Source: an uncultured Planctomycetales bacterium (GTDB lineage Bacteria > Omnitrophota > Gorgyraeia > Zapsychrales > Fredricksoniimonadaceae). Taken from it: 64,000 nt of DNA. The position numbers were made by a program, and so were the translations under genes. Of this stretch, positions 1,740-49,062 are shown piece after piece. The notes beneath the pieces were generated by a model. It searched no databases, was not told the DNA's origin, and saw nothing but the letters and a program-made list of their open reading frames with translations. The DNA is taken from the NCBI GenBank assembly GCA_964583975.1, contig CAZOXU010000002.1:48667-112666 (forward strand), read 5' to 3'. Numbering within the stretch: position 1 is the first letter of the stretch; each line of letters starts with the position of its first letter.

Positions 1740-2264
1740 TTATTGACTTATTGGCGAAAATTCTTGAATTTTATTCTTTAAATTCTTTATTTCTTGAGTT
1801 AATACTTTGATCTCTTGTTTATCATCTGAAACTTGTTCCTTAAGCTTTACGTAACGATCATTATAGGTAACCGTAAGGCTATTGATCTTATTTTTAGACT
1901 CGTTAGAAATTTGGTTTAAACGAGATTCCATAGTACGAACTTTTGCATCGTAAATATCTTTATTCTTATTTAATGTTTGGGTTAATTTCTGAACTTCTTT
2001 TTGCTGGCTTTTAATGGTCGAAACTAGATTTAATATTTCATTTTTATTAATATTAAGACTCATGAAACTTACTATACAAATAATAAAGGCAATGGCCCCT
2101 TCGAAAATTGCTAAAGCTATAAGGATAGCAATGGTTTTATTTGTTGATTTCTCAACCATAGGTTCTATTTTTCTTTCAATACCTAAAGATTCTTTTTCTT
2201 GAATAAAAGATCCCTGGGCTCTTTGTTCTTGAACCTTTTTTAAAGCATTAAATATCTGACTCAT
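1740..2264 (-). CDS. Hypothetical single-TM coiled-coil protein. It is a possible ExeB/GspB-like partner of the upstream ExeA-like ATPase.
   Basis: 174 aa. One hydrophobic helix (IAILIALAIFEGAIAFIICIVSF) is followed by a long K/E/Q-rich coiled-coil. It overlaps the upstream gene by 4 nt. Confidence 0.4.
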   Translation of the reverse strand: MSQIFNALKKVQEQRAQGSFIQEKESLGIERKIEPMVEKSTNKTIAILIALAIFEGAIAFIICIVSFMSLNINKNEILNLVSTIKSQQKEVQKLTQTLNKNKDIYDAKVRTMESRLNQISNESKNKINSLTVTYNDRYVKLKEQVSDDKQEIKVLTQEIKNLKNKIQEFSPISQ

Positions 2265-7577: not shown

Positions 7578-7586
7578 GAAAACTCC

Positions 7587-8903
7587 TTAGCCTTTATAAA
7601 GATTATCTTTGGTTTGAAAGAATTCAATTAACTTATTCTTTAAGAAATCTAAATCTTTCTGAGCGTGCTTACTGCTTATAAAAAACGCCTCTAAATCTGC
7701 AGGTGGTAAATAAATGCCGTTTTTCAGAAGATAATAAAATAATTTAGGGTAAACAAGTTTTGAGGAAGCTGCTTGAGCTGAAGAATAATCAAGAACCTCT
7801 TCTTTACGAAAACGCAAACTCATCATTCCCTTATAATTTGATACATGCGCTGAAATATTATATTCCTTAAAATAATTATTAATGTCTTTAGTAAAATTAC
7901 TAGAAATCTGATTAATATGCTTATAAACAGAAGCGTTCAAATTCTTTAAAGTAGCTAATCCAGCGGCCATTACAACTGGATTGCCAGAAAAAGTTCCAGC
8001 CTGATAAACATCCCCTAAGGGACTCAATCGTTTCATAATATCAGATCGACCACCATATGCTCCAATGGGAAAACCTCCTCCAATAATCTTACCTAAACAG
8101 GTTAAATCAGGCTGGATTCCCAAATCTCCTTGAGCCCCTGCATAATTGGAACGAAAACCTGTCATAACTTCGTCAAAAATTAAAACAATTCCATATTTAC
8201 GTGTTAACTCTCTTAAAGTCTTTAAAAATTCTTTCTTTGGGTTAATAACCCCCATATTACCTGCTACGGGCTCTAATACAATACAGGCTAGCTCTTTACG
8301 GTGTCGTTCAATGGTGTTGTATAGCTCTTGCGTATCATTGAAAGGCACGCTTAAGGTATTTTGGACGTGCGCTGGCGGAACTCCTTTACTGGTTGAAGAT
8401 GCCAGAAATGCGACCCCGCTTCCCGCAGCAGTCAACAGATCATCACAATGACCATGATAACAACCATCAAATTTTATGATCTTATTACGATTAGTGAAAC
8501 CACGGGCCAGACGAATAGCACTCATCACAGCCTCTGTCCCAGAATTGACAAAACGAATCAGGTCAATAGATGGAACTTTCTCTATAATTTCTTTAGCTAA
8601 ATCTGTTTCTAACTTTGTGGTTGTTCCAAAACTAGTTCCATTTTTAACGGTTTTATTGACTGCAGCTAAGACTTCCTTATGGGCATGACCTAAAATCAAA
8701 GATCCCCAGGAAAGGCAGTAATCTGTATAACGGTTACCATCAATATCAAAGAATTGAGCACCAGATCCGTGTGACATAACTAAGGCTTGTCCACCTACTC
8801 CTTTAAAAGCCCTTACAGGACTGTTGACTCCTCCCACTAAATACTTCTGAGCTCTTTTAAATTCATCTTTTGATCGACTGATTTTCATTGTTTTTAAAGC
8901 CAT
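7587..8903 (-). CDS. hemL: Glutamate-1-semialdehyde 2,1-aminomutase.
   Basis: Class-III aminotransferase fold. FKGVGGQALVMSHGSGAQFFDIDGNRYTDYCLSWGSLILGHAH is a typical HemL N-terminal region. 438 aa. Confidence 0.9.
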   Translation of the reverse strand: MALKTMKISRSKDEFKRAQKYLVGGVNSPVRAFKGVGGQALVMSHGSGAQFFDIDGNRYTDYCLSWGSLILGHAHKEVLAAVNKTVKNGTSFGTTTKLETDLAKEIIEKVPSIDLIRFVNSGTEAVMSAIRLARGFTNRNKIIKFDGCYHGHCDDLLTAAGSGVAFLASSTSKGVPPAHVQNTLSVPFNDTQELYNTIERHRKELACIVLEPVAGNMGVINPKKEFLKTLRELTRKYGIVLIFDEVMTGFRSNYAGAQGDLGIQPDLTCLGKIIGGGFPIGAYGGRSDIMKRLSPLGDVYQAGTFSGNPVVMAAGLATLKNLNASVYKHINQISSNFTKDINNYFKEYNISAHVSNYKGMMSLRFRKEEVLDYSSAQAASSKLVYPKLFYYLLKNGIYLPPADLEAFFISSKHAQKDLDFLKNKLIEFFQTKDNLYKG

Positions 8904-9847
8904 TTTAAAACATCCTTCGTATGATAACTGATAATAATATCCGCTCCTGCTCTTTTCATAGATAAGAGACTTTCTAAAACTACATCTTTTTCATTAATCC
9001 ATCCCTTTTGACTTGCTGCCTTAATCATAGAATATTCTCCACTGACATTATAAGCAACAATGGGAACCGTAAGCTTACGACGAAGCATGTTGACAATATC
9101 TAAATACGCCAAAGCTGGCTTGACCATGACCATGTCCGCTCCCTCTTCAACATCTAAAAAGGCTTCTTTGAGTGCTTCGCGGGAGTTAGCTGGATTCATC
9201 TGATAGGTTTTTCGATCACCGAACTGGGCCGCTGAGTGGGCAGCCTCGCGAAAAGGACCATAAAAAGCAGAAGCGTATTTAACAGTATAAGAAAGAATTC
9301 CTGTATCCTTAAGATTATTCTTATTCAATGCTTCACGTATAACTCTAACTCGATAATCCATCATATCCGAGGGAGCCACCCAATCTGCTCCAGCCTGGGC
9401 ATGGCAAAGAGCCATTTTAGTCAAAACTGGTAAAGTTTTATCATTATCTATGAAATTTCCATTTAAAATCCCACAATGCCCATGATTGGTATAGGCGCAT
9501 AGGCAAACGTCTGTAGCCACAAGAAATTCAGGAAAATATTTCTTTATACTTCGAATGGCACTAGGAATAGCTCCTTTAGGATTATAAGAATTCTTAGCCA
9601 AAGGATCTTTTAAACTAGACAAACCAAACAATACTCCTGCTTTACCACCCAAACGAATATAGGATTCAATTTCTTTAAGCAAAAGATCTACAGAGAATCG
9701 TTTAATTCCTGGCATAGAAGCTATAATCTCTTCTTTATTCTTACCTTCCAATACAAAAAAAGGCTGCCATAAGTCATTTTTAGTTAAATGATGTTCTTGC
9801 ACAAATCCCCTAATTCTCTCAAATCGTAATCGACGATAGTGTCTCAT
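8894..9847 (-). CDS. hemB: Porphobilinogen synthase (delta-aminolevulinate dehydratase).
   Basis: The start MRHYRRLRFERIRGFVQEHHL aligns with HemB N-termini. The active-site region SAFYGPFREAA is present. The ORF track extends to 9925, but that extension overlaps the upstream gene. Confidence 0.85.
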   Translation of the reverse strand: MRHYRRLRFERIRGFVQEHHLTKNDLWQPFFVLEGKNKEEIIASMPGIKRFSVDLLLKEIESYIRLGGKAGVLFGLSSLKDPLAKNSYNPKGAIPSAIRSIKKYFPEFLVATDVCLCAYTNHGHCGILNGNFIDNDKTLPVLTKMALCHAQAGADWVAPSDMMDYRVRVIREALNKNNLKDTGILSYTVKYASAFYGPFREAAHSAAQFGDRKTYQMNPANSREALKEAFLDVEEGADMVMVKPALAYLDIVNMLRRKLTVPIVAYNVSGEYSMIKAASQKGWINEKDVVLESLLSMKRAGADIIISYHTKDVLKWL

Positions 9848-11871
9848 ATATTTATAACATGTGGTTGATATCCAGCCTCTTCTACAGCTCCTGCAGTCAC
9901 GGGACCTTTGGCATAAATCTGCCAAGAAGTGGGTATTGTAACATAATCTTCGAGAAAATTATGAAAAGTTGAAGGACTGGTAAAAATAATCCCTTCAATA
10001 GGATCCAAAGGCAATGGACGTTTAGGAATCTTAATGTTTTCATAGATGGTCCATTCTTTAACATTGGCCCCTTTTTCTTCCAAGGATTTTCTTAAGAATG
10101 GATTTGGCAATGAGGAGCGTGGCAATAAAATGATTTTGTCCTTTATAGTCATTACACGTGATATCAAATTGTAAAGACCTTGGGCCGTTTCCTGAGAAGA
10201 TATGATCTGTGCTGCTAGACCAAAATCCTCTAAAACTTCAGCTGTAGCTCGTCCGATAACGGCATATATCTTTTGGCGTACGTTATTAGCTGATTTAAGA
10301 CCTAAAATGACACGGACAAAATGTTCTGCTGCATTAGGGCTGGTTAAAACCACAAAATCACTTTGATCAAAATCTGTAATTATATTTTTTTTGTCTTGCT
10401 CGTTAAAAACGATAGGTTGAATTTTAATCATAGGCCAAGATATGATTTGACCCAAATGTGTATATTTTTCTGGATGCGTGCCACAGTGTAATAACAGCTT
10501 CTCTGCTTCTTTTTGATAAAAATTAACCGTATCACCCGCCACAATTAAGGCTGGCGCTTGTAATGATGCTAAAAAAACTTTCTTTTCAATATCAGCTAAA
10601 GAACCCGAAATAACCTTCTGATTAAACTTGGTCCCATTACTAATAATCATAATAGATTTTGTTTTTTCCCAACCAGCCTTAAGCAGAGACTGAATAATTT
10701 GTCTAAGTCTACTTAAACCCATTAAAAACACAATTGTGTCAGTCTGAGGAATTTCAATATCCTTATCGCTCGAATCATTTTCTGATTCGCCATATCCACT
10801 CACAAAAGCAACCGAAGACGATACTCCTCTAGCTGTTAAAGGCACCCCGAGCATTGATGGAATACTGGTCGCAGAGCTTACACCCGGCACAACATGCACA
10901 GGAATATGGTAGGAACGTAAATAAGTAATTTCATCAGCTCCTCGTCCAAAAATCAAAGGATCTCCTCCTTTAAGACGAACAACCTTTAAGCCCTGCATTG
11001 CTTTTTCTTTTAATTGCTGACAAAGCTTTTCTTGGGAAAGCGTGTGATGTCCTTTGCGTTTACCAACGTAGATATGTTCCGCATTAGGAGCATATTTTAA
11101 TAAAGAGTGATCTAAAAGATAATCATAAAATACACAGTCTGCACCTTTAAGAATTTCAATAGCTTTAAGTGTGATGAGTTGTGGATCTCCTGGGCCAGCC
11201 CCTACCAAAAAAACTTCACCATAACTTCGCCGAACATCAATACTTTCAAAGAATTTCTGGGTTTGCCAATCATCCGACCGTCCCACTACCGCCAGCTGTC
11301 CTTGTAAAGGTGTTGCTTCCCAAGGCAGAACGCTTTGAATAAGGCTCTCTAAGCCTAAACGTTTTAAGGCACATGTAGCTACAATTAAGCCATCTACCTT
11401 CTTATTACGTAAGATATCTAATCGTTCTTGAATGGTTCCACGAATATCCACTAAATGGACATCAGGTTTTAAAACTTTAATCATTTCTCCTCGCAACAGA
11501 CTACTTGTACCAATTCTTGCCCCTTGAGGTAAATTCTCAATAGAATACTCTGATACCCAAGCATCTGTATCATCTGAGGCTTTGGTTAAAGCAAAAACCT
11601 TCAGTCCTGGAAGCAGTTTCTTAGGCAAGTCTTTGGCACTATGAATGGCTATATCGATTTCTTTTTTTAAAAGAGCAGCATCTAGACTATCGGTAAAGAA
11701 ATTATCACTTGGGTTTGATGTTAAAGGAGTTTTCTTATCAAAATCTCCTTGGGTGGAGAATTTAATTAACTCATATTCAAAAGGACTTTTGGGCAACAAA
11801 GCAAGAATTTCTTGAACTTGAATTTGAGCCAAAGGACTTTGACGAGATCCAATTTTTAAACGTAAAGACAT
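9844..11871 (-). CDS. Tri-domain fusion. HemC-like N-terminal module (domains 1-2 only) + uroporphyrinogen-III C-methyltransferase (CobA/SUMT) + uroporphyrinogen-III synthase (HemD).
   Basis: N-terminus: GSRQSPLAQIQ and HSAKDLP (HemC catalytic Arg and Asp). It stops about 18 aa after the GRSDD motif, so domain 3 with the cofactor Cys is missing. Middle: VFLVGAGPGDPQLITLKAIEIL...VPGVSS (SUMT). C-terminus: HemD-like, about 220 aa. Confidence 0.8.
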   Translation of the reverse strand: MSLRLKIGSRQSPLAQIQVQEILALLPKSPFEYELIKFSTQGDFDKKTPLTSNPSDNFFTDSLDAALLKKEIDIAIHSAKDLPKKLLPGLKVFALTKASDDTDAWVSEYSIENLPQGARIGTSSLLRGEMIKVLKPDVHLVDIRGTIQERLDILRNKKVDGLIVATCALKRLGLESLIQSVLPWEATPLQGQLAVVGRSDDWQTQKFFESIDVRRSYGEVFLVGAGPGDPQLITLKAIEILKGADCVFYDYLLDHSLLKYAPNAEHIYVGKRKGHHTLSQEKLCQQLKEKAMQGLKVVRLKGGDPLIFGRGADEITYLRSYHIPVHVVPGVSSATSIPSMLGVPLTARGVSSSVAFVSGYGESENDSSDKDIEIPQTDTIVFLMGLSRLRQIIQSLLKAGWEKTKSIMIISNGTKFNQKVISGSLADIEKKVFLASLQAPALIVAGDTVNFYQKEAEKLLLHCGTHPEKYTHLGQIISWPMIKIQPIVFNEQDKKNIITDFDQSDFVVLTSPNAAEHFVRVILGLKSANNVRQKIYAVIGRATAEVLEDFGLAAQIISSQETAQGLYNLISRVMTIKDKIILLPRSSLPNPFLRKSLEEKGANVKEWTIYENIKIPKRPLPLDPIEGIIFTSPSTFHNFLEDYVTIPTSWQIYAKGPVTAGAVEEAGYQPHVINI

Positions 11872-11892
11872 GAAGATATTATAGAAAAGGTT

Positions 11893-14025
11893 TTATCTTT
11901 TGACTAGGGCTTTAATGGCAGGTAGGTGTGTTAAAGCAGCTTCCTCGCCTCTGGCAATCAGCTTCTGTACTTCATAAAGCTCAAACCAATTAATTCCCTT
12001 TAAATCAGGGTGAATTAGTACGTCTGCTTGTTTGCTGCTGGCTTCTGCCAGAATATATTCGGATGCTTGTAAAGTGCAAACAATGATATCTGCAATATTA
12101 GGCGTAAAAGCCTTTCCAATAAAACGCCCCAAGCGAAATGTAACAAAGGCTAATGGATCAACTTTAAAAGAGATTTTCTCTTGTTGTTTCATATGCTCAT
12201 TATGTAAATCCTGACTCCAAGCTACTTCTTGAGGCGATTGAAGTACATTAACAGCAATGATTTTCCTAACTCCCATATCCACTAATACATTGGTTGGTAA
12301 AGGATTTAAAACTCCGCCATCAATAATTAAACGATTTTCTGTTGTGATAGGACGAAGGACCCCTGGAATAGCAATGCTTTGATGAACCGCTTCAACTAAT
12401 GATCCTGTATCAATAACAATTTCTTCTCTACGATGTAGATCATAGGCTACAGCTTTAAAAGGAATCTTGGAATCATGAAAGGTTCTATCTCCTAATTTAC
12501 CCCATAACCAACGATTAATAGCTTGTCCTCTAACCAAACCTGATATAGGAAGAGCTAAAGGAACAAGTAGAAACATACATAAAAAAGCTAAGACATATAA
12601 ATGAAATATAACCAATAATAACATAATCAATAAAACAGTAAGCGCACGTTCAAAAGGAGGATCAAATATAGACAGCATTCCTGATTTTTTCTCAAATTCG
12701 CGGGCAAATTTCTCTAATTCGTCAGCGTTATACCCAACTGACCATAAACTGCCAATTAAAGCTCCCATACTGCTTCCTACAATCACATCTACTGGAATCT
12801 TTTCTTGTTCCAAAATACGAATTATGCCAACGTGAGCTAAACCTAAGGCTGCCCCACCTCCTAAAACCAAGCCAATGAGAGAGCCGCTAATTTGCCTGCT
12901 TAATCTTTGCAAAACCAAAGCATACTCACTGTGGGGATCAACCTTCACAATAGAAAAACCATTGAACACAATCTGGGAATCATATTCTGTAGGCTTTAAA
13001 GAAGGTAATTTAAAAAACACATCATAATTCAATATTTTCTTAATCTCGTCAGGAGTTAGGTCGTCCCCCTTCACACCACCGATAAGAACTTGAACCTTAT
13101 CGGTTTGAAATCGATCCTTAAGCTGTTGTGATAAATCGTCAATCACACAGCGGGTTAACCCAAGATCATATTCTCTTTCTAGTGTCATCAAATGAACAAT
13201 ATCGCTTTGAACTAAAGCTTTTAAAACAATATTGTCCAATTGATTGGGAAGATCAAAAATAATATAGCTGTAATCATTGACCGGAGAACTAATCAATTGA
13301 CCGATCCGAGGAAGAATTCCTTGATCGGCAGCATCAAATTTAACAGCTAACACATCTAAATTAAGTTTCTCTTTTTGAATAGCGGCTGAAATTTTCTGGT
13401 GGTCATAAACAATATCAGTCATGTTAACCAATGGGGCATTCAGGTCAGAGCTTAAACTGATCAATAGAACTTTTTTATCCGTTTGATTTCTTAATGTTAA
13501 GGCTAAATTAGCCGCGTAAGTCGAGCTGCCTGTTCCCTTCACAGGAGCATAGACAGAAATAATTGTACATTCCTGGGTATTGCGTACCCCTGTGGAATGG
13601 CTTCTGATTCTTTGTGAAAGGCTTTGACTTAAAGCTACTGCTAATTTGGGAATAGTTTTTAATAAGGCTGCAAAAGCATCTTTATCAATTTTTACTACCA
13701 CGGAATCATTGATAGCTTCATAGGTATGCGTATGATTTTCACCTGTTAAGGTAGAGATAATTCCAAAGTGCATGCCTCGAAGGATAAAATCTACATCTTC
13801 TTTCTGACCTGCAGAATTAATGGCATAAGAATAAATTCGACCGGTAACCACCGCATAAAAAGCATCAGCAGGATCACCTTTTTTACAGATAATATCACCC
13901 TTATTAAAATCAACTACGTCTACCCGACGAGATATGCGGTTTAATTCAAACCAGTTAAGTCCAGAAAAAAGAGGAATCTGTTTAATAACAGCTAATTTAT
14001 TAAAAAATGAAGGCAAAGCGGTCAT
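11893..14025 (-). CDS. Cyclic-nucleotide-binding domain / degenerate ParA-MinD-like domain / patatin-like phospholipase protein (NTE-like).
   Basis: An N-terminal cNMP-binding (CAP-like) domain. A middle domain ISVYAPVKGTGSSTYAANLALTL...KVLLISLS that looks like a P-loop ATPase lacking the Walker Lys. Patatin motifs GLVLGGGAALG (GxGxxG), GSSMG (GxSxG) and DGGV (catalytic Asp). There are hydrophobic inserts. Confidence 0.75.
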   Translation of the reverse strand: MTALPSFFNKLAVIKQIPLFSGLNWFELNRISRRVDVVDFNKGDIICKKGDPADAFYAVVTGRIYSYAINSAGQKEDVDFILRGMHFGIISTLTGENHTHTYEAINDSVVVKIDKDAFAALLKTIPKLAVALSQSLSQRIRSHSTGVRNTQECTIISVYAPVKGTGSSTYAANLALTLRNQTDKKVLLISLSSDLNAPLVNMTDIVYDHQKISAAIQKEKLNLDVLAVKFDAADQGILPRIGQLISSPVNDYSYIIFDLPNQLDNIVLKALVQSDIVHLMTLEREYDLGLTRCVIDDLSQQLKDRFQTDKVQVLIGGVKGDDLTPDEIKKILNYDVFFKLPSLKPTEYDSQIVFNGFSIVKVDPHSEYALVLQRLSRQISGSLIGLVLGGGAALGLAHVGIIRILEQEKIPVDVIVGSSMGALIGSLWSVGYNADELEKFAREFEKKSGMLSIFDPPFERALTVLLIMLLLVIFHLYVLAFLCMFLLVPLALPISGLVRGQAINRWLWGKLGDRTFHDSKIPFKAVAYDLHRREEIVIDTGSLVEAVHQSIAIPGVLRPITTENRLIIDGGVLNPLPTNVLVDMGVRKIIAVNVLQSPQEVAWSQDLHNEHMKQQEKISFKVDPLAFVTFRLGRFIGKAFTPNIADIIVCTLQASEYILAEASSKQADVLIHPDLKGINWFELYEVQKLIARGEEAALTHLPAIKALVKR

Positions 14026-15875: not shown

Positions 15876-16061
15876 AATAGCCTCCGGGTAGAAGATGTAT
15901 TAATATTTGATATAATTACACTTACAATAAATTATATATGCAGTATAAAGCAGCCAACTAAAAAAGCAATCATTAGTCAAAGTTTTTACGTCGAAAGTAT
16001 GGAAAAGTAAAATTCTCAATTTAATTGACAAAATACAAAGTCCCTATAAAATTCAAAACAT

Positions 16062-35607: not shown

Positions 35608-36678
35608 CTACCACTCTAAGGCGCCACCGGTTTGGTATTCTGTTACGCGGGTTTCAAAGAAATTCTTTTCTTTCTTAAGATCGATTATTTCACTCATCCA
35701 AGGAAACGGATTGCTGGAATTATAAACACGATCAAGGCGAAGCTTTTCTAATCTACGATCAGCTATGTACTGGATATATTCTCTCATCATAGGAACATTT
35801 AATCCTAATACACCCCGAGGCAAACATTCTTGGGCATAATTGACTTCTAATTCAACAGCACGTTTGATACGTTGGGTCAAATGCTGAGCAAATTCAGCAG
35901 TCCAACCATATTTATTTTCATCAATGATCGTATTAATTAATTGGATACCAAAATTCATATGGATACTTTCATCACGCAAAATATATTGAATCTGCTCACA
36001 AGTTCCAGGCATTCTATTTTGACGTCCAAATGAAAGCATGGTCACAAAGCCGCTATAAAAGAAAATTCCTTCGGTCACCACATAAAAGGCCACCAGATTA
36101 TCTAAAAATTTCTGTAAACCTTCCTTGGTAGCTAAATCAACATTTTCATCCACAATACCATCAGTACAACTCATGGAGAATTCATCTTTTTCATAAATCT
36201 CTTTGTTCTCTCGATACATATTAAAAATTTCTGTTTCATCAAGAGATAAAGATTCTGAAATATATTGGAATGTATGGACGTGTACTGCCTCTTCAAAAGC
36301 CTGACGCAGTAAATATTGACGGCATTCGGGATTGTCAACCAATTTAAAAATAGATAGAACAATATTATTACCAACCAAGGTCTCAGCTGTTGAGAAAAAG
36401 CCTAAATTACGTTTGATTACATGCCGCTCATCAGGCGTGAAAGCATTAGGATTTTTCCATTGCTCAATATCTCTTTGCATAGAGACTTCTGTCGGCATCC
36501 AAGTGTTTGCGCAAGCATCTAAATAGGAATGCCAGGCCCATTTGTATTTAATAGGAACTAACTGATTAACATCCACTTTTCTATTGTTAAGAATGATCTT
36601 CTTATTATCAGCAGAAACTCTTTCTCTGCTCATTCGAAGACCACCAGCACACTCTTGGCTTTTTAAATCTTCTGGCAT
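35608..36678 (-). CDS. nrdB: Ribonucleotide reductase small subunit, R2c-type (class Ic-like: Glu/Phe variant).
   Basis: In the [10 protein letters not shown] motif a Glu takes the place of the first Asp ligand. In EEAVHVHTF a Phe sits at the radical-Tyr position. The start is at 36678 with SD AAGGAG. The ORF track extends to 36789. Confidence 0.85.
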
Positions 36679-36691
36679 GAATAAATCTCCT

Positions 36692-39600
36692 TTATTGGCA
36701 CGATTCACAATCTTGGACTGGTTCAGCACTAGGTTTGGCAGCAACAGCTTCAACAACGCTGCCTTTTTCATCACGCTGGCGCTGACCAACTACGTTACCA
36801 TATTTTGTAATATCCAGAGTACTTTTCTCAATACGAGTAGCACCCATAGATCGTAAATAATAAGTTGTTTTGAGTCCTTTTTCCCAAGCAAACATATACA
36901 TATCACTAATCTTTTTACCACTAGGCTTGGCTTGATATAAGTTTAAACTTTGCCCCATATCAATCCATTTCTGACGACGAGAAGCAGCTTCAATAATCCA
37001 CTCATAATCAATTTCAAAGGCAGTAGCATATTTAGATTTTAAATGAGCAGGAATACGTTTGATTTCTTGGACACTACCATCAAAATATTTAAGATCATCA
37101 ATCATTTCCTGGTCCCAAAGTCCTAATTTCTTTAGATCTTCCACCAAGTATTCATTGATAACGGTAAATTCACCTGAAAGATTACTCTTAACGAAAACAT
37201 TTTTATACATTGGTTCAATACTTTGGGTTACTCCACAAATGTTGCCAATGGTGGCTGTTGGAGCGATCGCCATGACCAAACTATTACGAAGACCATCTCT
37301 TTTAATAGCTTGGCGAACAAAACCCCAATCCATACGTTGAGTGCGATCCATATCCAAATAATCACCGCGTTCTTTGGCTAATAAATCAATCGTATCAATT
37401 GGTAAAAGTCCTCTATCCCACTTAGAACCTTGATAGGTAGAATATTTTCCTCTCTCCCTGGCTAATTCGCAACTGCCAAGCAAAGCATAGTATGAAATTG
37501 CTTCCATGCTTTCATCAGCAAATTCAACAGCTTCCGCAGAAGCATAGCTAATATCCAAATGATACAAGGCATCTTGAAAGCCCATAATCCCCATACCTAC
37601 TGGACGATGACGGCCATTAGCTGTGGCTGTTTCTGTTGTAGGATAATAATTAATGTCGATAACATTATCCAGCATACGCACAGCGGTCATGATGGTTTCT
37701 TTAAGCTTTTTATGATCAATACCTTCCTTGGTTACGTGCACACTCAAATTCACTGAACCAAGATTGCAAACAGCATTTTCTTCTTTAGATGTATTAAGAA
37801 GGATTTCCGTACATAAATTAGAACTGTGAACAACGCCTACGTGATCTTGAGGAGAACGGACATTGGAAGGATCCTTCCAGGTAATCCATGGATGGCCAGT
37901 TTCAAAAACCATTGAAAGCATTTTACGCCATAATTGGACAGCTGAGACGGTTCTAAAATGTTTAATTTTACCTTCTTTAGCTAACTGTTCATATTCATGG
38001 TATCGCTTCTCGAATGCCTGACCATAGATATGATGCAAATCTGGAGTTTCTGAAGGTGTAAATAAAGTCCAATCGGCATTAGCCTTAACTCTCTTCATAA
38101 ATAAATCAGGAATCCAGTTAGCTGTATGCATATCATGCGTACGACGGCGTTCATCACCCGTGTTCTTACGCAATTCTAGAAATTCTTCAATATCCAAATG
38201 CCAGGCTTCCAGGTAAGCACACATGGCTCCCTTACGTTTTCCCCCTTGATTAACCGCAACTGCTGTATCGTTGGCTACTTTCAAAAATGGAATAATCCCC
38301 TGACTTTTACCATTGGTACCTTTAATGCGCGATCCCATAGCGCGAACACTGGTCCAATCATTTCCAAGTCCACCGCTCCATTTAGAAAGCATCGCATCAT
38401 CTTGGATACACTTAAAAATATGCCATAAATCATCTTCAATGGTTGTTAAGAAGCAAGATGATAATTGTGGATGTTTTGTTCCTGCATTAAAAAGTGTTGG
38501 GGTTGATGACATGAAACGAAATGTGGAGAGGATATTGTAAAACTCAATAGCTTTTTGATTCTTTTGTTCGCCTTCACGAGAAGCCAAACCCATAGCTACA
38601 CGCATCCAGAAAATTTGAGGAATTTCAATGCGTCTTTCTTGAGAATGGATAAAATAACGATCAAACAAAGTCTGTAGCCCCATATAATGGAATAAAAAAT
38701 CTCTTTCAGGAACCAAGGCTTTGGATAATTCTTTTAAATTAAATGATTTTAATTCAGGATCTAATAATTCCAGTTGAACAGCTTGTCCAATAAACTTAAT
38801 AAAATACTCCGGATACTCTACACGGATACGCTCAAAAGAAGCATCGGTTCCTAAAGCCTCGGTGTATTCCAAAAGCAACAATAATCGCGCTGCAACAAAG
38901 GAATAATTTGGCTCTTTTTCAATATAGCTGCGAGCTGCCATAATGTTAGCGAGAGCCATTTGACGCTCGGTCATGCCGTTAAAATAATTCTTAACAGCTT
39001 CTTTAAAAAGAAGATCTACAGAAACATTGCTTAAAGATTTACAGCAGGTTTCAATATTAAAACGGATCTCTTCTAAATCAATAGGTCGTTCTTCACCCTT
39101 TTCATTTTTGATAACAAGGTTTTTGACCCATTCAATAGATTCTTCAACCTGCGCATTCTTAACACGACGGGCTTTGGCTCTTTCTTCTCTGTAAATGATA
39201 TATCGTTTAGCCACATCATGATAGCCGCCAGCCATAATAATTTTCTCAACGATATCCTGAATCTCTTCAATATTGATGGATTTACCTTCTGGCCATCTGG
39301 TTCTTATTTCAGCGGTAACCTTGTCCGATAATTCATGGGCTTTTTCAATCAAAATCTCATTATAAATACCTTTGTTATGTGCAATCAAAGCTTTAGCAAT
39401 GGCTAAAGTAATCTTTTCTTGTTTGAAAGAGACAATCTTACCGTCGCGTTTAATGATGGAATAAAGTTCAAATAATTGTCGACGAGCAGCATGGTGTTTT
39501 CGGTAACTAGCATAACGTTCAGCTGTTTCTTTATGACCAGTTTCATAAAGCTGTCGAATCACTTCATCTTGAATTTCTTCGACTGTTAAAAAAGGTTTTT

Positions 39601-39820
39601 GCATGCCCCTTTCTTTAAGAACCGCCAACACACAGTCTGTGACTTTATTAACTTCTGCTAAATCTTCCGAAGATAGTTCGGATTCGCGAGGAAGGCCAAG
39701 TTGTTCTTTAAAAGCATTAGCAACAGCATGGGTAATACGATGAGGTACAAATTCAATAATTTGACCATTACGTTTTTGTACTTTGATGTCGAAACTATTA
39801 GTGGTAAGTGAAGAAGACAT
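36692..39820 (-). CDS. nrdA: Ribonucleotide reductase large subunit with three N-terminal ATP-cone domains.
   Basis: Three V.KR.G..E.F-type cones: [24 protein letters not shown] and [14 protein letters not shown]. The catalytic core and C-terminal CESCQ tail follow. The start is at 39820, preceded by AAGGGGGG. Confidence 0.9.
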
Positions 39821-39966
39821 CGACAGAGCCCCCCTTAAACAAAAATTAATAGAATCTGAATAAACACTATATATATGAATCAAAAATTAGATGAGTACTA
39901 CATATAGTACTTAAGAACGAACTTCAGTCAAACATTTTTAGAACTATTTTTACTTAGAATTATTTT

Positions 39967-40575
39967 TTATTTTGAAGAAAAAAGCTTCTCAACTTCTTGC
40001 CAATTCACAACATTCCAAAATGCGGCAATGTAATCAGGTCGTCGGTTTTGATAATTTAAATAGTAGGCATGTTCCCAAACATCAATCCCTAAAAGAGGTG
40101 TTTTACCTTCCATCAAAGGACTATCCTGATTAGCTGTTGAAGATATTTCTAATTTGCCTTCTTTATTTTTTGACAACCAAGCCCAGCCACTTCCGAAACG
40201 TGTTGTAGCTGCAGCAGCAAATTTTTCTTTAAACGCATCAAAAGAACCAAATTCTTTATTGATCGCTTCCGCAATCTTGCCTGTTGGAGCCCCTCCACAT
40301 TTTGGACCAATAATGGCCCAAAAAAATGTGTGGTTAGCATGTCCACCACCATTGTTACGAACCACATTACGGATATCTTCTGGAATTTTATTTAAATCAG
40401 AAATTAACGCTTCAACAGATTTTGATTCTAAATCTGCTTTGCCTTTGATCGCGTTGTTAACATTGTTAATATAAGCTTGATGATGTTTGGTGTGGTGAAT
40501 TTCCATGGTGCGTGCATCAATGTGTGGTTCTAAAGCATTGTAGGGATATGCGAGAGCTGGTAGTGTGTAAGCCAT
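39967..40575 (-). CDS. Superoxide dismutase (Fe/Mn family).
   Basis: 202 aa. HHTKHHQAY...DVWEHAYY. Confidence 0.9.
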
Positions 40576-40596
40576 TATATTCTCCTAAGGATTTAA

Positions 40597-41103
40597 TTAT
40601 ATTGATTTAACAGCATTTAAAACTTCGTCATAGTTTGGTTCTGAAGCAACTTCTTTCACTAATTGAACATAACGAACCTTACCATTAGCATCAACGACAA
40701 AAATAGAACGAGCCAAAAGGTTTAAACCCTTAATCAGCACGCCATAATTTTCACCAAAATTACTACGATAATCTGATAGTGTTTTCACAGCACTAGCCCC
40801 CGCTGCTCCACACCAACGTTTTTGCGCAAAAGGAAGATCTTTGCTGATAGTTAAAACAGCAACATCTGCATGCTTAGATGCTTCTTGATTAAAACGTTTT
40901 GTTTGCAAATCACAAACGGGAGTGTCTAAAGAAGGAACTACTGACAAAATTACTTTCTTTCCTTTATAAGAGGACAACTTAACTTCAGATAAATCATTAG
41001 CCACTAAGGTTACATCAGGAGCATTATCTCCTACCTTAACTTCATTCCCCTGTAAAGTTAGTGGGTTACCTTTCATTGTTACTGCACCAATACGTTCTGA
41101 CAT
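40597..41103 (-). CDS. tpx: Thiol peroxidase (atypical 2-Cys peroxiredoxin).
   Basis: MKGNPLTLQGNEVKVGD...SLDTPVCDLQ. The likely start is at 41103. The ORF track extends to 41154. Confidence 0.85.
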   Translation of the reverse strand: MSERIGAVTMKGNPLTLQGNEVKVGDNAPDVTLVANDLSEVKLSSYKGKKVILSVVPSLDTPVCDLQTKRFNQEASKHADVAVLTISKDLPFAQKRWCGAAGASAVKTLSDYRSNFGENYGVLIKGLNLLARSIFVVDANGKVRYVQLVKEVASEPNYDEVLNAVKSI

Positions 41104-41163
41104 ACAAACTCCTTTCCCGCCGAAGGCTGATCCGCTACGTTTTGTAACGGACAAATATTAAAA

Positions 41164-41838
41164 CTATTTTTCTAAATTGTTCTTATAAATAACGGCTGCT
41201 AAAAGACCGCCAGCCACTGGACCGACAATATAAATCCACCAATTTTGTAAGGTGCCCCCCATTAAGGCCGGCCCAATATAACGAGCTGGATTCATAGCTG
41301 CTCCAGAAATTGGACCACCCATCATAATATCCAAGGCCACTGTTAAACCAATAAATAACCCACCTAATTTAGGAGCTCTTGCATCAACAGCTGTCCCAAA
41401 AACTACAAAAACTAAAAAGAAGGTCAAAATAATTTCAGTAATTAGACCCATACTGACTGTAATATCATTACCTAAAGAAGGAGTCCCCATCCCTACTGCA
41501 GTTAATACTGCCGCAGGAACTGTCCATTTAATTAAAAAAGCTGCTACCAGCGCTCCCAAACATTGAGCTAGAATATAGGCAACAGCTGCATTGGTTTCAA
41601 TTTTCTTAGCAAAACATAAACTAACAGTAACTGCAGGGTTTAAATGCCCCCCACTGATGGCGGCTGTGGCAGAAACCATGACTGCTATAGCAAAACCATG
41701 AGCCAAAGCAATCCCAGTTAAACCTAATTTGCCTCCGCTGATATAATCAGCGCTAATAGCTCCAACACCAATAAAAATAAGGGTAAATGTTCCGATGAAT
41801 TCTGCTACGAGAGATTTGTTTAATTGATTTTTAGACAT
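41164..41838 (-). CDS. MIP-family channel (aquaporin/aquaglyceroporin).
   Basis: Two NPA boxes (NPAVT, NPAR). 224 aa, 6 TM. Confidence 0.85.
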   Translation of the reverse strand: MSKNQLNKSLVAEFIGTFTLIFIGVGAISADYISGGKLGLTGIALAHGFAIAVMVSATAAISGGHLNPAVTVSLCFAKKIETNAAVAYILAQCLGALVAAFLIKWTVPAAVLTAVGMGTPSLGNDITVSMGLITEIILTFFLVFVVFGTAVDARAPKLGGLFIGLTVALDIMMGGPISGAAMNPARYIGPALMGGTLQNWWIYIVGPVAGGLLAAVIYKNNLEK

Positions 41839-41891
41839 TAATTTTTTCCTGTAAGAGGGTTAGGAAAGACATCTTACAATCTTCTTTTTAT

Positions 41892-42323
41892 TTGTCAATC
41901 GTTTGCTATAATCAAAACATGTATATTTATAAAACACAAATCAAATTGCATGATACCGACGCTGCTGGGCTTCTTTTTTTTGGAAAACAATTCTTTTATG
42001 TTCATGATGCATATGAAAAATTATTAGAAAAAATTGGTTTCGGATTTTCAAATTTACTTAAGAAAAGAAAATATTTTTTACCCATCGTTCATGCGGAAAG
42101 TACTTATAAAAAACCTCTATTTGTTGGGGATGAAATTACGATCCGAGTCAAACTTACCAATATCGGAACCAGCTCTATCACCTTCACTTATATCATTACC
42201 AATAAAAAGAACGATGTAGTAGGAACTGCCAAAACAGTCCACGTTACAACCGACAAAGCTACAAAGAAGAAAATCCCACTCCCTAAAGCCTTCCGATCCG
42301 CTCTTGAAAAAATTGCCGACTAA
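41892..42323 (+). CDS. Hotdog-fold acyl-CoA thioesterase (4HBT/YbgC-like). It is a likely DHNA-CoA thioesterase for the adjacent men cluster.
   Basis: ...YKTQIKLHDTDAAGLLFFGKQFFYVHDAYE... The probable true start is the ATG at 41919, immediately after an extended -10 (TGCTATAAT, about 41903-41911). Confidence 0.7.
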   Translation: MSIVCYNQNMYIYKTQIKLHDTDAAGLLFFGKQFFYVHDAYEKLLEKIGFGFSNLLKKRKYFLPIVHAESTYKKPLFVGDEITIRVKLTNIGTSSITFTYIITNKKNDVVGTAKTVHVTTDKATKKKIPLPKAFRSALEKIAD

Positions 42324-43650
42324 CCTTTAAGCCTTGATTTAAATCCTTGGGCCATGGATAAAATAAAACAGGTATTTTGATTTTAGGCAGATATTGAAAA
42401 CAATGGCTCCTTAAATAATTCTCATCAAAAACTCCTGTCATGCGAACAAAAGCCACCGGTCTATGCCCATATTCGGCATCTTCACGCGAGACAACAATGA
42501 CTTCTTTAACCTGAGGCGATCGTAATAATGCACTTTCAATTTCCTCAGGTTGAATATTCTCACCCGCACAGATAAACATGTTATCCATCCGCCCTAAAAC
42601 CGTTAGAAAACCATTCTCCAACTTTCCTAAATCTCTAGTCTCAAACCACCCTTCGCCAGTTACAGGAGCAGAAATCTTATTTTGATTCCAATAACCCTTA
42701 AATAAAACTTCACCTTTAACTAAAATCTGCCCTTGTTCGTTAATCATCAATTGACGATACGGTAAAACCTTGGCCGATGATTTATTAACATCCTGCACCT
42801 TACCCGTAGCCACTTGCGAAGACATTTCTGTTAATCCATAACTGACATATACCGATAAATCCAGTTCTAATGCTCGCTCTAATAAATTATGCGGAATTGA
42901 ACTACCGCCAAGCAAAATATACTTTAAAGATTTTAAAAAGGAATGATTGTCCTTATTTTCCATAAGCCTGTGAAGTTGAAGAGCTACCAAAGAAATATGG
43001 GTTGGTTGAGATTTCTTGATGACATAATCCAACTCTTCTTGCATCGACATAACAATAGTAGCTTGTGCTAGATAACAACGACAAACAATACTGATCCCTG
43101 AAACATGATACAAAGGTAAGGATAATATCCACCGGTCCCCCTTATTTAAGGCAATAGTCTCCTGCGAACCCTTGGCACTGTAATAATGGTTTCCCCAGGT
43201 GTGGACTGCGGCCTTAGGTAAATTACTACTACCTGATGTCCATATGATGGTCGCCTCTTGATCTAAAGGAATCTCGGATGTAGCTACAACTTGGACCTGT
43301 CTGGCATCATAGGAAATCAAATCTTTAAGATCAATGATCGGGACTAATATTTTTTTACCTGCTTTAAATTGTTTATTAGCAGTTAACACAACCTTAGGAT
43401 TGAGTTTTTGGCAACACTGCAGTAAGGTTTCATATGGCCAGGCAGGATTTAAAGGACAAGCAATAGCTCCCATTTTCCAAAGAGAAAGCAAGACAATGAC
43501 ATACTCAATACTATTTTGTTCAATAATGACAACGCGATCGCCCAGACCAATACCTCGACCTTTCAGATGCTTCATGACCGCACTGATATAATGCTCTAGC
43601 CTTTCATAATCAATTTTTCTAGATCCCCAAATAATCGCTTGCTCACTCAT
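42283..43650 (-). CDS. menE: O-succinylbenzoate-CoA ligase.
   Basis: 455 aa. AMP-binding enzyme (TSGSSNLPKA P-loop). It lies in the men cluster. Confidence 0.8.
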   Translation of the reverse strand: MSEQAIIWGSRKIDYERLEHYISAVMKHLKGRGIGLGDRVVIIEQNSIEYVIVLLSLWKMGAIACPLNPAWPYETLLQCCQKLNPKVVLTANKQFKAGKKILVPIIDLKDLISYDARQVQVVATSEIPLDQEATIIWTSGSSNLPKAAVHTWGNHYYSAKGSQETIALNKGDRWILSLPLYHVSGISIVCRCYLAQATIVMSMQEELDYVIKKSQPTHISLVALQLHRLMENKDNHSFLKSLKYILLGGSSIPHNLLERALELDLSVYVSYGLTEMSSQVATGKVQDVNKSSAKVLPYRQLMINEQGQILVKGEVLFKGYWNQNKISAPVTGEGWFETRDLGKLENGFLTVLGRMDNMFICAGENIQPEEIESALLRSPQVKEVIVVSREDAEYGHRPVAFVRMTGVFDENYLRSHCFQYLPKIKIPVLFYPWPKDLNQGLKVSRQFFQERIGRL

Positions 43651-44714
43651 CGCAATAAATCCTTAAGAATAATACACTGTTGATTAATCAAATGTTCACT
43701 CTTAAGCCAGCGGTCTGTTCCTAAACCTGGCACTTGTTCACTAACCAACGCTAAATTTGCTAAAACCTTAAGTCCGACTGCAGACTCAAAGCTCGAACTA
43801 ATAATAGGTTTCTTACCATGACGCCAGGCTTCTTCAATCCACTGCAAGGTCTCTATGAATCCTAAAGCCATGGGTTTTAAAACATACGCTTTGACAGCTT
43901 CATGCTGCGCCAAGGTTGGCGAACATCTGCCTGGCGCAGTCACGCCGCATTTTGATACCTTTAAAGTTTCATCTAAAGCTACTGGAAAATGACTCTGTTG
44001 ATAAAATTGATTAAGCTGGCTAATATCACTCAAGGGTTCTTCTATAAATTCAATTCGCTCATGCCCTATAAGCTCTACAAACAAAAGCGCTTCTTTCAAA
44101 CTCCAGACACGATTTCCATCCAGACGTAATAAAGCATCTTTAGGTATTATCTTTCTTAATTCTTGGACTTTTTTGACATCCAAAGGAATATTTCGATCTC
44201 CAACTTTGAGCTTAAATACTTTTATACCTGCCTCGACTAAGCTTTTAGCCTCAGTGATAACCTGATCATAGGTTCCTTGTAAAAGAGCAGCCGAAGCAAC
44301 GTCCTCAAGCGTTGATCCTAAGAATTCTGCCAGACTGACTCGTTGAGATTGGGCAACAAATAAAAAACAAGCTGATTCAACAGCAAATCTAGCACTAGGA
44401 CATAACTCTTTAATAAGAACGTCATCTTTTAACTCTCGGATCAAAGATTTTCTATCATCCGCTAGCTTCAAACCTTTAAGGTGTTTTTGAATTTCTTCAA
44501 GGTGATGCCGGCAATGTTTGAGTGTCTCAGCACTCACTCCCGGCAAAGGGGCTGCCTCTGAGCAAACAGACATTCCATCAGTGGAAATTAAGGTCAAATA
44601 AAAACCTGTCCGCTGAGTAAGAATATTACCTGCAAAGGTGAAGGATTGAGTAAGTGGAATTTCAAAAGGAACAATTGAAGATTGGGCAATAACTAACGAC
44701 TGCACAGGATCCAT
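43647..44714 (-). CDS. menC: O-succinylbenzoate synthase (enolase superfamily).
   Basis: 355 aa. KLKVG...D-x-N motif pattern, in men context. Confidence 0.7.
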   Translation of the reverse strand: MDPVQSLVIAQSSIVPFEIPLTQSFTFAGNILTQRTGFYLTLISTDGMSVCSEAAPLPGVSAETLKHCRHHLEEIQKHLKGLKLADDRKSLIRELKDDVLIKELCPSARFAVESACFLFVAQSQRVSLAEFLGSTLEDVASAALLQGTYDQVITEAKSLVEAGIKVFKLKVGDRNIPLDVKKVQELRKIIPKDALLRLDGNRVWSLKEALLFVELIGHERIEFIEEPLSDISQLNQFYQQSHFPVALDETLKVSKCGVTAPGRCSPTLAQHEAVKAYVLKPMALGFIETLQWIEEAWRHGKKPIISSSFESAVGLKVLANLALVSEQVPGLGTDRWLKSEHLINQQCIILKDLLR

Positions 44715-45568
44715 CCAATAGAAAATACAACACTATAGAGTAAAAGCCATCGCCCTGTGGTAGCTAAAGCAGAATTCAAAGCCTGTGGGTCAGAGTTAGT
44801 CATGACTGTTCGCACAGTAGGAATAGCTAAAAAACCAACGCCAGAGGCAGCCAACATTCCTAGATGATCTTTGGTGATTAAAAAGACCAAAAAAGGAGAA
44901 ATTGTAGTAGCTAAAATACAAAATAAATATTCAGCAAAAGCAAATTTCTTACCAAAACGTACCGCTAAGGTCAGTTTTCCTACCTTACGATCACCTTCAA
45001 TATCTCTCAAATTATTAATGGCTAGAATAGCGCAAGATAAAAAACCGGGAGCCAGACCAGCTAATACAATCGCCCAATCAATATCCAAGGCCTGCACATA
45101 ATAAGTACCTCCAACTGCAACTGGGCCAAAGAAAATAAAAACAAATAATTCACCTAGACCTAGATAAGCCAAGGCGTTCTTCCCTGCTGTATAAAGGATT
45201 CCTGAGGTTATAGCCGTCACGGCAATGATGGCAATTGTTGCTCCAGCACGATAAACAAGGTAGCTACTACAGATGGCTGCTAAGATAAAAACAATCACCA
45301 TGACTCGAAAGATATCAGCTGGTTTTATCAAGCCTGCCTGGGTTACGCGCAGAGGGCCTACTCGATTAACATCCGCACCCTTCTTAAAATCAAAATAATC
45401 ATTAGCTAGATTGGTCCCGATTTGAATAAGTAAGGCAGTAATAAGACATGTAATGGCGGATAAGGCATGAAAGATCCCGTCTCCCCAGGCCATCGATGCT
45501 CCAATTAGAACTGGAGCAATAGCAGCTGGCAAGGTTTTAGGACGAATAGCAAGAAGCCAAGGACTCAT
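44693..45568 (-). CDS. menA: 1,4-dihydroxy-2-naphthoate polyprenyltransferase.
   Basis: 291 aa. UbiA-family membrane prenyltransferase (NDYFD...). Confidence 0.85.
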
Positions 45569-46386
45569 GGTCTTTTAGGAAATTTTGAAAAATCAGGTTT
45601 ACGTTTTTGTACAAAAGCATTGCGCCCTTCTTGACCTTCTTCAGTCATGTAAAACAACAAGGTCGCATTTCCAGCTAATTCTTGTAAACCAGTTTGGCCA
45701 TCACAATCCGCATTTAAAGCTGACTTAAGGCAACGAATAGCTAGTGGTGAATGTTGCAATATTTCCTTACACCACTGAATAGTTTCTTGTTCTAATCTTT
45801 TATAAGGAACAACCGTATTGACCAGACCCATTTCCAATGCCTGTTTGGCATTATACTGACGGCATAAAAACCAAATTTCGCGAGCCTTTTTCTGTCCCAC
45901 GATACGAGCCATATAGCTGGAACCAAAGCCGCCATCAAAAGATCCAACCTTAGGACCGGTTTGGCCAAAGATAGCATTATCAGCCGCGACCGTTAAATCA
46001 CAAACCATCTGAAGGATTTGTCCGCCACCCACGGCATAACCTGCCACCATGGCAATCACAGGTTTGGGACAGCCACGAATTTGTTTTTGAAAATCTAAAA
46101 CATTCAATCGGTTGGTCCCGTCTTTATCTTTGTATCCCGCATCACCTCTAATTTTCTGATCTCCACCTGAACAAAACGCATCTTTACCCTCACCTGTCAA
46201 AATAATAACGCCAATTCTTTCATCATCCCTAGCATCATTGAGAGCATCCATCATTTCTTTAACAGTCACTGGTGTAAATGCATTTCGACGATGTGGACGG
46301 TTAATGGTAATTTTAGCAATACCATCCATCTTTTGGTATTTAATATCTTCATATTGACCTGCAGTTTTCCAAGAAACTTTACTCAT
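45565..46386 (-). CDS. menB: 1,4-dihydroxy-2-naphthoyl-CoA synthase.
   Basis: 273 aa. Crotonase fold (AFCSGGDQK...). MenB family. Confidence 0.9.
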
Positions 46387-48640: not shown

Positions 48641-49062
48641 TTATCAATAAATCCAAGATTGAGAAGTTCTCGTTCCAACACTTGTCCTGCAGTAATAATA
48701 ACAGCTTCAAAACTTTTAATCTTTATCTGTAAAGAGTCCTTTAATGTGTGCAATTTCTTAGCATTCTCGGCATTTTTATTCTTCATATCCGAGCTATACC
48801 ACTGTTCATAACTTTTATAATCTTCGTAGGCTTTATTAAAATCTGTTAAAGCATCAGCATATTTCTTTATTTCTTGATGAGCTTTCAAGACATCTAAGTC
48901 TTTAACTTTTTGCCACTTTTCTAGCAAATAAGGGTTTGTAATAAACTGACGCTGATCCATTACATAGTAAATTTCAAGATTCTTTTCAATTTCATCTAGA
49001 AACTCTAACAATTGTTTTTTAAATAGACTTTTTTGATGCCACGATTTTAAAAGCTTAAGCAT
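48637..49062 (-). CDS. Hypothetical protein.
   Basis: 141 aa, K/E-rich helical. It is translationally coupled to xseA. Confidence 0.4.
   Translation of the reverse strand: MLKLLKSWHQKSLFKKQLLEFLDEIEKNLEIYYVMDQRQFITNPYLLEKWQKVKDLDVLKAHQEIKKYADALTDFNKAYEDYKSYEQWYSSDMKNKNAENAKKLHTLKDSLQIKIKSFEAVIITAGQVLERELLNLGFIDN

Follow-up and report, generated by a model that had tools for sequence, protein, structure and literature searches.

Can a hydroxymethylbilane synthase (HMBS, the hemC product) do its work when the domain that carries its cofactor is missing? This question is raised by a gene on the reverse strand of a 64,000-nucleotide stretch of DNA (the window; positions 48,667 to 112,666 of contig CAZOXU010000002.1, assembly GCA_964583975.1) from an uncultured bacterium that the GTDB lineage places in the Omnitrophota. 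The gene encodes a single protein in which a HemC module is followed by a uroporphyrinogen-III C-methyltransferase (SUMT, CobA) and a uroporphyrinogen-III synthase (UroS, HemD). HMBS makes its own dipyrromethane cofactor and holds it through a thioether to a cysteine of its third domain. This cysteine has been called invariant or conserved, and the HMBS structures that have been solved are three-domain structures (PMC3949521, PMC7959689, PMC7242693, and a 2026 Chem Rev review). The initial annotation had read the gene as a HemC-CobA-HemD fusion lacking domain 3, and had asked whether its HemC module is catalytic, with the cofactor carried in trans, or regulatory. The best explanation of the results described here is that the protein is a trifunctional Omnitrophota enzyme, probably leading from porphobilinogen (PBG) to precorrin-2, that has a two-domain HMBS as its base. 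By itself the fusion is of modest interest, and the main point is the class of two-domain HMBS that stands behind it.

The three modules of the fusion protein

Searches of the fusion protein against Pfam returned three domains in the order proposed initially: PF01379 (Porphobil_deam) at aa 5-205, covering profile positions 1-206 of 207 with 174 bits, PF00590 (TP_methylase) at aa 220-428 with 159 bits, and PF02602 (HEM4) at aa 475-673 with 115.4 bits against a gathering score of 27.5. PF03900, the C-terminal domain of HemC, had no match in the protein. The relationship of the N-terminal module to HemC was borne out by a second profile, TIGR00212 (hemC), which exceeded its cut-off (175.7 bits against 164) and was aligned over positions 1-221 of 293 only. 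The alignment to E. coli HemC (1PDA/1YPN) likewise spanned residues 6-219 only. In the E. coli enzyme, domain 1 comprises residues 1-99 and 200-217, domain 2 residues 105-193, the hinge residues 218-221, and domain 3 residues 222-313 (PMC3945110). Because the alignment stops at residue 219, the module ends exactly at the hinge, and the absence of domain 3 and of the cofactor cysteine, as first suspected, was confirmed.

The PBG deaminase motifs that had been reported for this module were found as R10-Q-S12, H77-S-A-K-D81 and G42-D43, together with G197-R-S-D-D201. The SUMT motif VFLVGAGPGDP starts at V220, 19 residues past D201 of the GRSDD motif, in agreement with the short spacing noted before. 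The SUMT module exceeded the cut-offs of TIGR01469 (249.9 bits against 185) and NF004790 (253.8 against 198), and its G224-D229 (GxGxGD) and G302-P305 (GGDP) motifs were invariant in the alignment. The NCBIfam HemD equivalog models all stayed under their cut-offs for the fusion, the best of them with 86.8 bits against 275. In the AlphaFold 2 (AF2) model, aa 1-215 were folded without any domain 3, at a pLDDT of about 80-95. Foldseek superposed the HMBS module of this model on 1pda with a root-mean-square deviation (rmsd) of 2.1 Å over 224 columns and the SUMT module on 1s4d with an rmsd of 2.4 Å over 242 columns, while a Foldseek search of the PDB returned no solved structure with the same fused architecture.

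A long open reading frame (ORF) of this kind could be produced by a frameshift, introduced in sequencing or assembly, by which once separate hemC, cobA and hemD genes were run together and domain 3 was lost, and relatives do have these genes in separate or partly fused form. The check for merged genes that the initial annotation called for allows this explanation to be set aside with near certainty. A search with the full protein found at least 120 homologue clusters of 52-100% identity, in all of which these three Pfam domains recur at a protein length of about 650-700 aa. These clusters originate from four assembly sources (NCBI, ENA, JGI and Logan), and an identical protein (P0121) is present on a 222,597-bp NCBI contig. 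The junction between the short HemC (written HemC' below) and SUMT follows the pattern FxxIDVRRxYGxVxLVGAGPGDP and is gap-free in the alignment, with D212 and G218 invariant and Y217 conserved in at least 90% of the sequences. Standalone short HemC proteins terminate at the same hinge position, a few residues past the ...F..ID.R motif. The artefact was rejected because of the recurrence of the architecture and the ungapped junction. Mean pairwise identity across the tri-domain homologues was 0.59 for HemC', 0.65 for SUMT and 0.51 for HemD, and since the value for HemC' lies alongside the other two, this module is not decaying.

The tri-domain protein is common in Omnitrophota. Its named homologues are mostly entered as 'uroporphyrinogen-III C-methyltransferase' from Candidatus Omnitrophica or Omnitrophota, and in JGI as 'uroporphyrinogen III methyltransferase/synthase', with the HemC part unnamed in each case; two GTDB loci with a homologous gene belong to Omnitrophota metagenome-assembled genomes. 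A chlamydial origin of the window, to which GC content and sigma-54 had seemed to point, was rejected because the nearest homologues and these GTDB loci bear Omnitrophota names, even though the standalone short HemC does occur in Chlamydiota. Because the first of these annotations hides the HMBS module, pathway reconstructions are predicted to call hemC missing where it is present.

The two-domain HMBS family

An exhaustive HMMER search with the short HemC over 1.84 billion cluster representatives gave 7162 matches at E <= 1e-10 and 254 cluster representatives at E <= 1e-30. The best 150 of these 254 representatives all lack domain 3. The view that a HemC without domain 3 is an oddity of the fusion, which had been suggested initially, was given up on this result and on the existence of an NCBIfam model for the short type (see below). 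The short HemC belongs to a large family that existed before this fusion and did not arise from it.

A near-complete HemC module is carried by 145 of the best 150 representatives, and the counts given here were made from these. Architectures were called with purpose-built hidden Markov models and cross-checked by Pfam. The tri-domain form HemC'-SUMT-HemD was the most frequent, with 59 representatives (clusters at 50% identity), followed by HemC'-HemD with 45, standalone short HemC with 24, HemC'-SUMT with 8, forms with an N-terminal partner (HemA-HemC', SirC-HemA-HemC' and SirC-HemC') with 8, and a single HemC'-LMWPc/ArsC-like protein. One further protein, HemC'-NIR_SIR-TusA (P0324, 841 aa), is a direct fusion of the short HemC with a siroheme-dependent sulfite reductase. 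Examples of the N-terminal fusions are SirC-HemA-HemC' (P0370, 726 aa), SirC-HemC' (P0374, 383 aa) and HemA-HemC' (P0298, P0319 and P0340).

When aa 1-218 were used as the query, only domain-3-less proteins were present among the top 120 matches, and these were standalone proteins with PF01379 only (205-250 aa), PF00590 fusions and PF01451 fusions. Five proteins of about 350 aa (P0025, P0034, P0102, P0107 and P0260) consist of a short HemC and a C-terminal LMWPc/ArsC-like PF01451 domain with a CxxNSCRS motif, and this cysteine-bearing domain occupies exactly the position of HemC domain 3. In such fusions the PF01451 domain might supply a nucleophile or redox control. A query with the standalone member P0079 led to proteins of 216-250 aa named as Chlamydiia, Chlamydiota and Chlamydia sp., some of which are encoded on contigs of up to 2.0 Mb. 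Other named members of the short family were from Verrucomicrobiota, Fibrobacterales and Omnitrophota.

A curated NCBIfam hydroxymethylbilane synthase model of 241 positions, NF002202 (PRK01066), which was probably built from chlamydial HemC, is matched by the fusion over positions 20-235. Because proteins of the short type match this model over nearly its whole length, although under its cut-off, annotation pipelines would already recognise the type. In the open-access literature, neither a description of an HMBS lacking domain 3 nor one of a three-enzyme HMBS-SUMT-UroS protein was found.

In comparison with canonical HMBS (E. coli HemC, 1PDA, and the human enzyme), the fusion module has the same fold in domains 1 and 2, the same catalytic Asp and the same Arg-rich cleft, but neither domain 3 nor the Cys242 loop. 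Three residues that set the short family apart from the canonical enzymes, Glu22, Thr63 and Ala173 (E. coli numbering), are all present in the fusion; Cys172 marks the tri-domain clade, and Arg131 is replaced by Leu in the fusion. Standalone proteins of the short type, which are about 220 aa long and occur in Chlamydiota, Verrucomicrobiota and Omnitrophota, have the same two-domain extent and the same family residues. The fusion differs from the Chlamydiota type in being joined to SUMT and HemD, in having Cys172 and in lacking Arg131.

Fusions of consecutive tetrapyrrole enzymes are already well known, as in CobA/HemD, CysG and the HmbS-UroS protein of Leptospira. The CobA/HemD bifunctional proteins (K13542 type), which are known from Desulfovibrio vulgaris, Clostridium josui and Selenomonas and of which a 476-aa example was found in one related locus (L012), have the same order of SUMT and then HemD. 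To these the fusion adds an N-terminal HMBS, with a predicted total of three consecutive activities. In CysG, a homologous SUMT is part of a multifunctional enzyme that feeds siroheme; its partners are downstream enzymes, whereas those of the fusion are upstream enzymes, and the fusion has no NAD_binding_7/SirC module. The CysG model NF007922 was matched by the fusion at positions 209-449 of 450 only, with 256.8 bits against a cut-off of 400. The HmbS-UroS protein of Leptospira is about 547 aa long, which would fit a full-length HemC, whereas the HemC'-HemD proteins found here are about 400-510 aa long, mostly 415-446 aa, and have no domain 3. The Leptospira protein, which is mentioned for L. 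interrogans in PMC8698207, is like the fusion in that HMBS is joined to a consumer of its unstable product, but it has no SUMT.

Possible catalysis and priming without domain 3

Residues R11, S13, Q19, D46, F62, H80, S81, K83, D84, S128, S129, R132, R149, G150, R155, A170, R176, Q198 and G199 (E. coli numbering) were essentially invariant across the architecture classes. The roles of these HMBS residues in substrate and pyrrole binding have been listed for the human enzyme (PMC7959689). Among the cleft residues checked in the fusion, R131 alone is replaced. Because the catalytic Asp and the cleft residues are invariant, because the short HemC takes the place of HMBS in otherwise complete operons, and because the AF2 fold superposes on 1PDA, the HemC module is most likely an active HMBS.

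It could instead be proposed that the HemC-like module is not an enzyme and that, attached to a CobA/HemD bifunctional enzyme, it binds PBG or bilane or has a regulatory or scaffolding function, with hydroxymethylbilane made by a canonical three-domain HemC encoded elsewhere. This would account for the loss of domain 3 and Cys242, which are called invariant in all characterised HMBS (PMC3949521, PMC7959689), and for the Leu at the position of Arg131, and the 64 kb inspected leave room for a second gene. We consider such a role unlikely, since the catalytic and pyrrole-binding residues other than R131 are invariant across hundreds of diverged sequences, and a mere binding domain would not require conservation of this kind, especially of Asp84. 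In addition, the conservation of HemC' is on a par with that of SUMT and HemD, and early-pathway operons of relatives (hemA-hemC-cobA-hemD-hemB-hemL) that are complete in other respects contain no HemC other than the short one. The regulatory role that had been considered at first lost ground on this evidence.

The other possibility raised by the initial annotation would retain the canonical chemistry: the HemC module would be catalytic but would need a separate domain-3-like protein that carries dipyrromethane on a cysteine and docks in trans. To look for such a carrier, a domain-3 profile was built from three sequences only, the HMBS of E. coli, V. cholerae and B. megaterium, with residues 219-313 of E. 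coli HemC, which are 100% identical to 1YPN/1AH5 in the PDB. The profile had no match in the six frames of the 64-kb window (best E = 3), in 179 kb from twelve related loci, or among 509 family proteins. A single-sequence phmmer search with the E. coli domain 3 recovers the human and Arabidopsis HMBS at 1e-10, and domain 3 in its canonical form would therefore not have been missed, although a very divergent one could escape the three-sequence profile. Inserts of 80-100 aa in three HemC'-X-HemD proteins were not PF03900. The operons examined have no conserved small gene of unknown function beside short hemC; the sole recurrent extra gene is a cupin, which lies beside the tri-domain gene only. 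A separately encoded domain 3 was rejected for the DNA inspected, and although it could be encoded outside these loci, a carrier acting in trans is regarded as highly improbable.

With respect to a substitute for the lost anchor, no cysteine column was conserved across the 145 modules of the short family, and 6 of the 145 modules, as well as 5 of 96 standalone proteins, are free of cysteine. A universally conserved replacement cysteine was rejected, as the clades differ (position 172 in the tri-domain clade, position 75 in the Chlamydiota type) and some members have no cysteine at all. Because of these cysteine-free members, a Cys thioether cannot be the rule for the whole family. Within the tri-domain clade, a Cys at E. 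coli position 172 (Cys167 here) was found in 114 of 120 close homologues and in 55 of the 59 representatives, and the same position is Ala in most other short HemCs. This clade has also lost Arg131 (Leu126 here; L, S or A in the representatives), which is retained by nearly all other short HemCs, including most of the standalone and HemC'-HemD forms. The Chlamydiota-type standalone proteins (112 homologues of P0079) have Ala172 and Arg131, and Cys75 is present in 100 of the 112 (89%).

Position 172 lies two residues after A170 and four residues before R176. In the human enzyme, the backbone NH of Ala189 (E. coli A170) binds the c2-ring acetate of the cofactor, and the side chain of Arg195 (E. 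coli R176) binds the c2-ring propionate (PMC7959689, Table 2). By helical periodicity, Cys167 would share a helix face with Arg171 (E. coli R176) and probably lines the cleft, and for the tri-domain clade it can therefore reasonably be put forward as a candidate anchor in place of the lost cysteine.

If the protein is a trifunctional enzyme on a two-domain HMBS, as preferred here, the N-terminal module would convert porphobilinogen to hydroxymethylbilane, the C-terminal HemD module would convert hydroxymethylbilane to uroporphyrinogen III, and the central SUMT module would convert uroporphyrinogen III to precorrin-2. The HMBS module would have been inherited from the short family that ends at the hinge rather than truncated by the fusion event. 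Unstable hydroxymethylbilane may be passed straight to the HemD and SUMT modules, and the fusion would thereby commit flux to precorrin-2. Two options for priming are ranked about equal for the tri-domain clade. In the first, the cofactor or the first pyrrole would be anchored to Cys167. In the second there would be no Cys tether, and the primer might be held non-covalently, might be attached to a non-Cys residue (the invariant Glu22 and Thr63 are candidates), or there might be no cofactor; an arrangement of this second kind would be required for the cysteine-free members. The broader proposal, that the two-domain family makes hydroxymethylbilane without a Cys-tethered dipyrromethane, is possible but somewhat doubtful. 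If the family does need no Cys tether, Cys167 would be a secondary, lineage-specific device of the tri-domain clade.

Several points weigh against the reading of the protein as a trifunctional enzyme. Catalysis by any two-domain HMBS is a prediction, and a canonical hemC may lie in the source genome beyond the 64 kb inspected. In the match to NF002202 the HemC module scored 197.8 bits, under the cut-off of 251, and the standalone short relatives, with 128-242 bits, were also under it. Arg131, which is replaced by Leu in the fusion, is reportedly needed for cofactor assembly, as judged by mutagenesis of the E. coli enzyme. The placement of Cys167 in the cleft comes from periodicity and not from model coordinates, the AF2 model has a pTM of 0.58, and the inter-domain packing of the fusion is not predicted. 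Finally, the genes that would use precorrin-2 (sirC, chelatase, ahb or NIR_SIR) are absent from the window.

Gene neighbourhood and the likely fate of precorrin-2

The operons of relatives show every intermediate stage of fusion, and the tri-domain gene is the fully fused end of a hemC'-cobA-hemD string. The order in one locus (L003) is Rrf2-PAPS reductase-SirC-HemA-HemC'-SUMT-HemB-HemL-NIR_SIR, in a second (L012) HemA-HemC'-...-CobA/HemD-HemB-HemL-...-NIR_SIR, and in a further relative NIR_SIR-TusA-SirC-HemA-[HemC'-SUMT]-HemD-HemB-HemL. In another locus (L011), HemC'-HemD is found beside HemF and a HemY-like oxidase, and the closest named homologues are from Chlamydiota. No hemD was found in the 10 kb to each side of the L003 operon (8655-14198; Omnitrophica GCA_028707125.1), where UroS is either encoded elsewhere or replaced by some other means.

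The initial annotation had suggested a flux toward precorrin-2, for siroheme or for a siroheme-dependent heme route, and this suggestion is supported indirectly. The fusion of UroS with SUMT, by which uroporphyrinogen III would be made beside the methylase, argues for it, and a link to siroheme is indicated because relatives repeatedly join the short HemC and SUMT with SirC, PAPS reductase, TusA and sulfite reductase. By analogy with these operons, siroheme is the best-supported and most likely end product, and siroheme-dependent heme made from precorrin-2 is possible. The locus itself adds nothing to this part of the suggestion: in about 55 ORFs of the window searched with Pfam, hemB and hemL were the only tetrapyrrole genes beyond the fusion, and hemA and hemE/N/H were absent together with the precorrin-2 genes named above.

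The fusion gene is followed by hemB, hemL and a cupin gene (Table 1). The ATG of hemB overlaps the TGA of the fusion gene as ATGA, and the fusion gene would be translationally coupled to hemB. The longest hemB ORF (8894..9925) begins at a TTG inside the fusion gene. Translation almost certainly begins at the ATG at 9847 instead, because the resulting length matches that of the orthologues and because of the ATGA overlap. The order fusion-hemB-hemL-cupin is kept in six loci (L005-L010) of 54-72% identity, and the cupin gene follows hemL in every tri-domain locus examined, including the one (L008) in which the other flanking genes are different. Among NCBIfam models, only the C-terminal cupin of GMP/PMI enzymes matched this protein; a role in the pathway, for example in metal handling, is conceivable but unsupported.

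The gene upstream of the fusion, for a patatin-type protein, is syntenic in five of the six tri-domain loci, the exception being L008. In the relative with 72% identity (L005, 15215-18943), the region immediately downstream of the hem genes has acquired a Tn3-family transposase and a TacA/GNAT toxin-antitoxin pair. A scan of positions 7000-16200 of the window for promoters and terminators gave matches that were no commoner than in shuffled sequence. Elsewhere in the window, genes of an oxygen-exposed lifestyle and a menaquinone string were found, and the latter suggests a respiratory chain needing haem.

Table 1. Positions of the fusion gene, its modules and key codons, and other genes in the window
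Feature	Position	Strand	Remarks
HemC(short)-SUMT-HemD trifunctional protein (predicted)	9844..11871	-	complete ORF, ATG start, 675 aa, TGA stop
Two-domain HMBS module, aa 1-215	11227..11871	-	about E. coli HemC residues 2-221; ends at the domain 1/3 hinge
HemC'-SUMT junction, aa 206-219, KFFESIDVRRSYGE	11215..11256	-	ungapped, conserved; no room for domain 3
SUMT / CobA module, aa 218-456	10504..11220	-	GAGPGD and GGDP motifs
Uroporphyrinogen-III synthase (HemD) module, aa 468-675	9847..10470	-	PF02602; T510-S511 and S632-P-S634 invariant
Codon Asp81 (E. coli catalytic Asp84)	11629..11631	-	invariant, with one exception among 145 short-HemC modules
Codon Leu126 (E. coli Arg131 position)	11494..11496	-	Arg lost in the tri-domain clade
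Codon Cys167 (E. coli Ala172 position)	11371..11373	-	clade-specific, near-invariant; candidate cofactor anchor
hemB (porphobilinogen synthase, 317 aa)	8894..9847	-	NF006762, 456 bits against cut-off 297
hemL (glutamate-1-semialdehyde 2,1-aminomutase, 438 aa)	7587..8903	-	TIGR00713, 558 bits against cut-off 527
Cupin, 115 aa	7230..7577	-	PF01050 C-terminal type / PF07883 Cupin_2
710-aa protein, cNMP-binding, ParA/AAA_31-like and patatin phospholipase	11893..14025	-	upstream, 21 nt from the fusion ATG
Class I ribonucleotide reductase (both subunits), Fe/Mn superoxide dismutase, peroxiredoxin	35608..46386		oxygen-exposed lifestyle genes; range includes the adjacent menaquinone string
MenE/MenC/MenA/MenB-like genes	42283..46386		menaquinone string
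673-aa protein	49067..51088	-	no Pfam match
141-aa protein	48637..49062	-	no Pfam match
174-aa protein	1740..2264	-	no Pfam match

The short class contradicts what has been stated as an invariant of the textbook enzyme, the domain-3 cysteine, and does so in a family of about 250 clusters at 50% identity that extends over Omnitrophota, Chlamydiota, Verrucomicrobiota and Fibrobacterales. If the short HMBSs are active, cofactor tethering is either dispensable or has been reinvented, which would change the view of the polymerase mechanism and of the control of product length, and a mechanistically distinct chlamydial HMBS could be a selective drug target. In the fusion, one soluble polypeptide should turn PBG and S-adenosylmethionine into precorrin-2, which would be attractive for the engineering of siroheme, B12 and heme. 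Should the family indeed work free of a Cys tether, it would represent a second mechanistic class of HMBS, used by Chlamydiota, Omnitrophota and their relatives.

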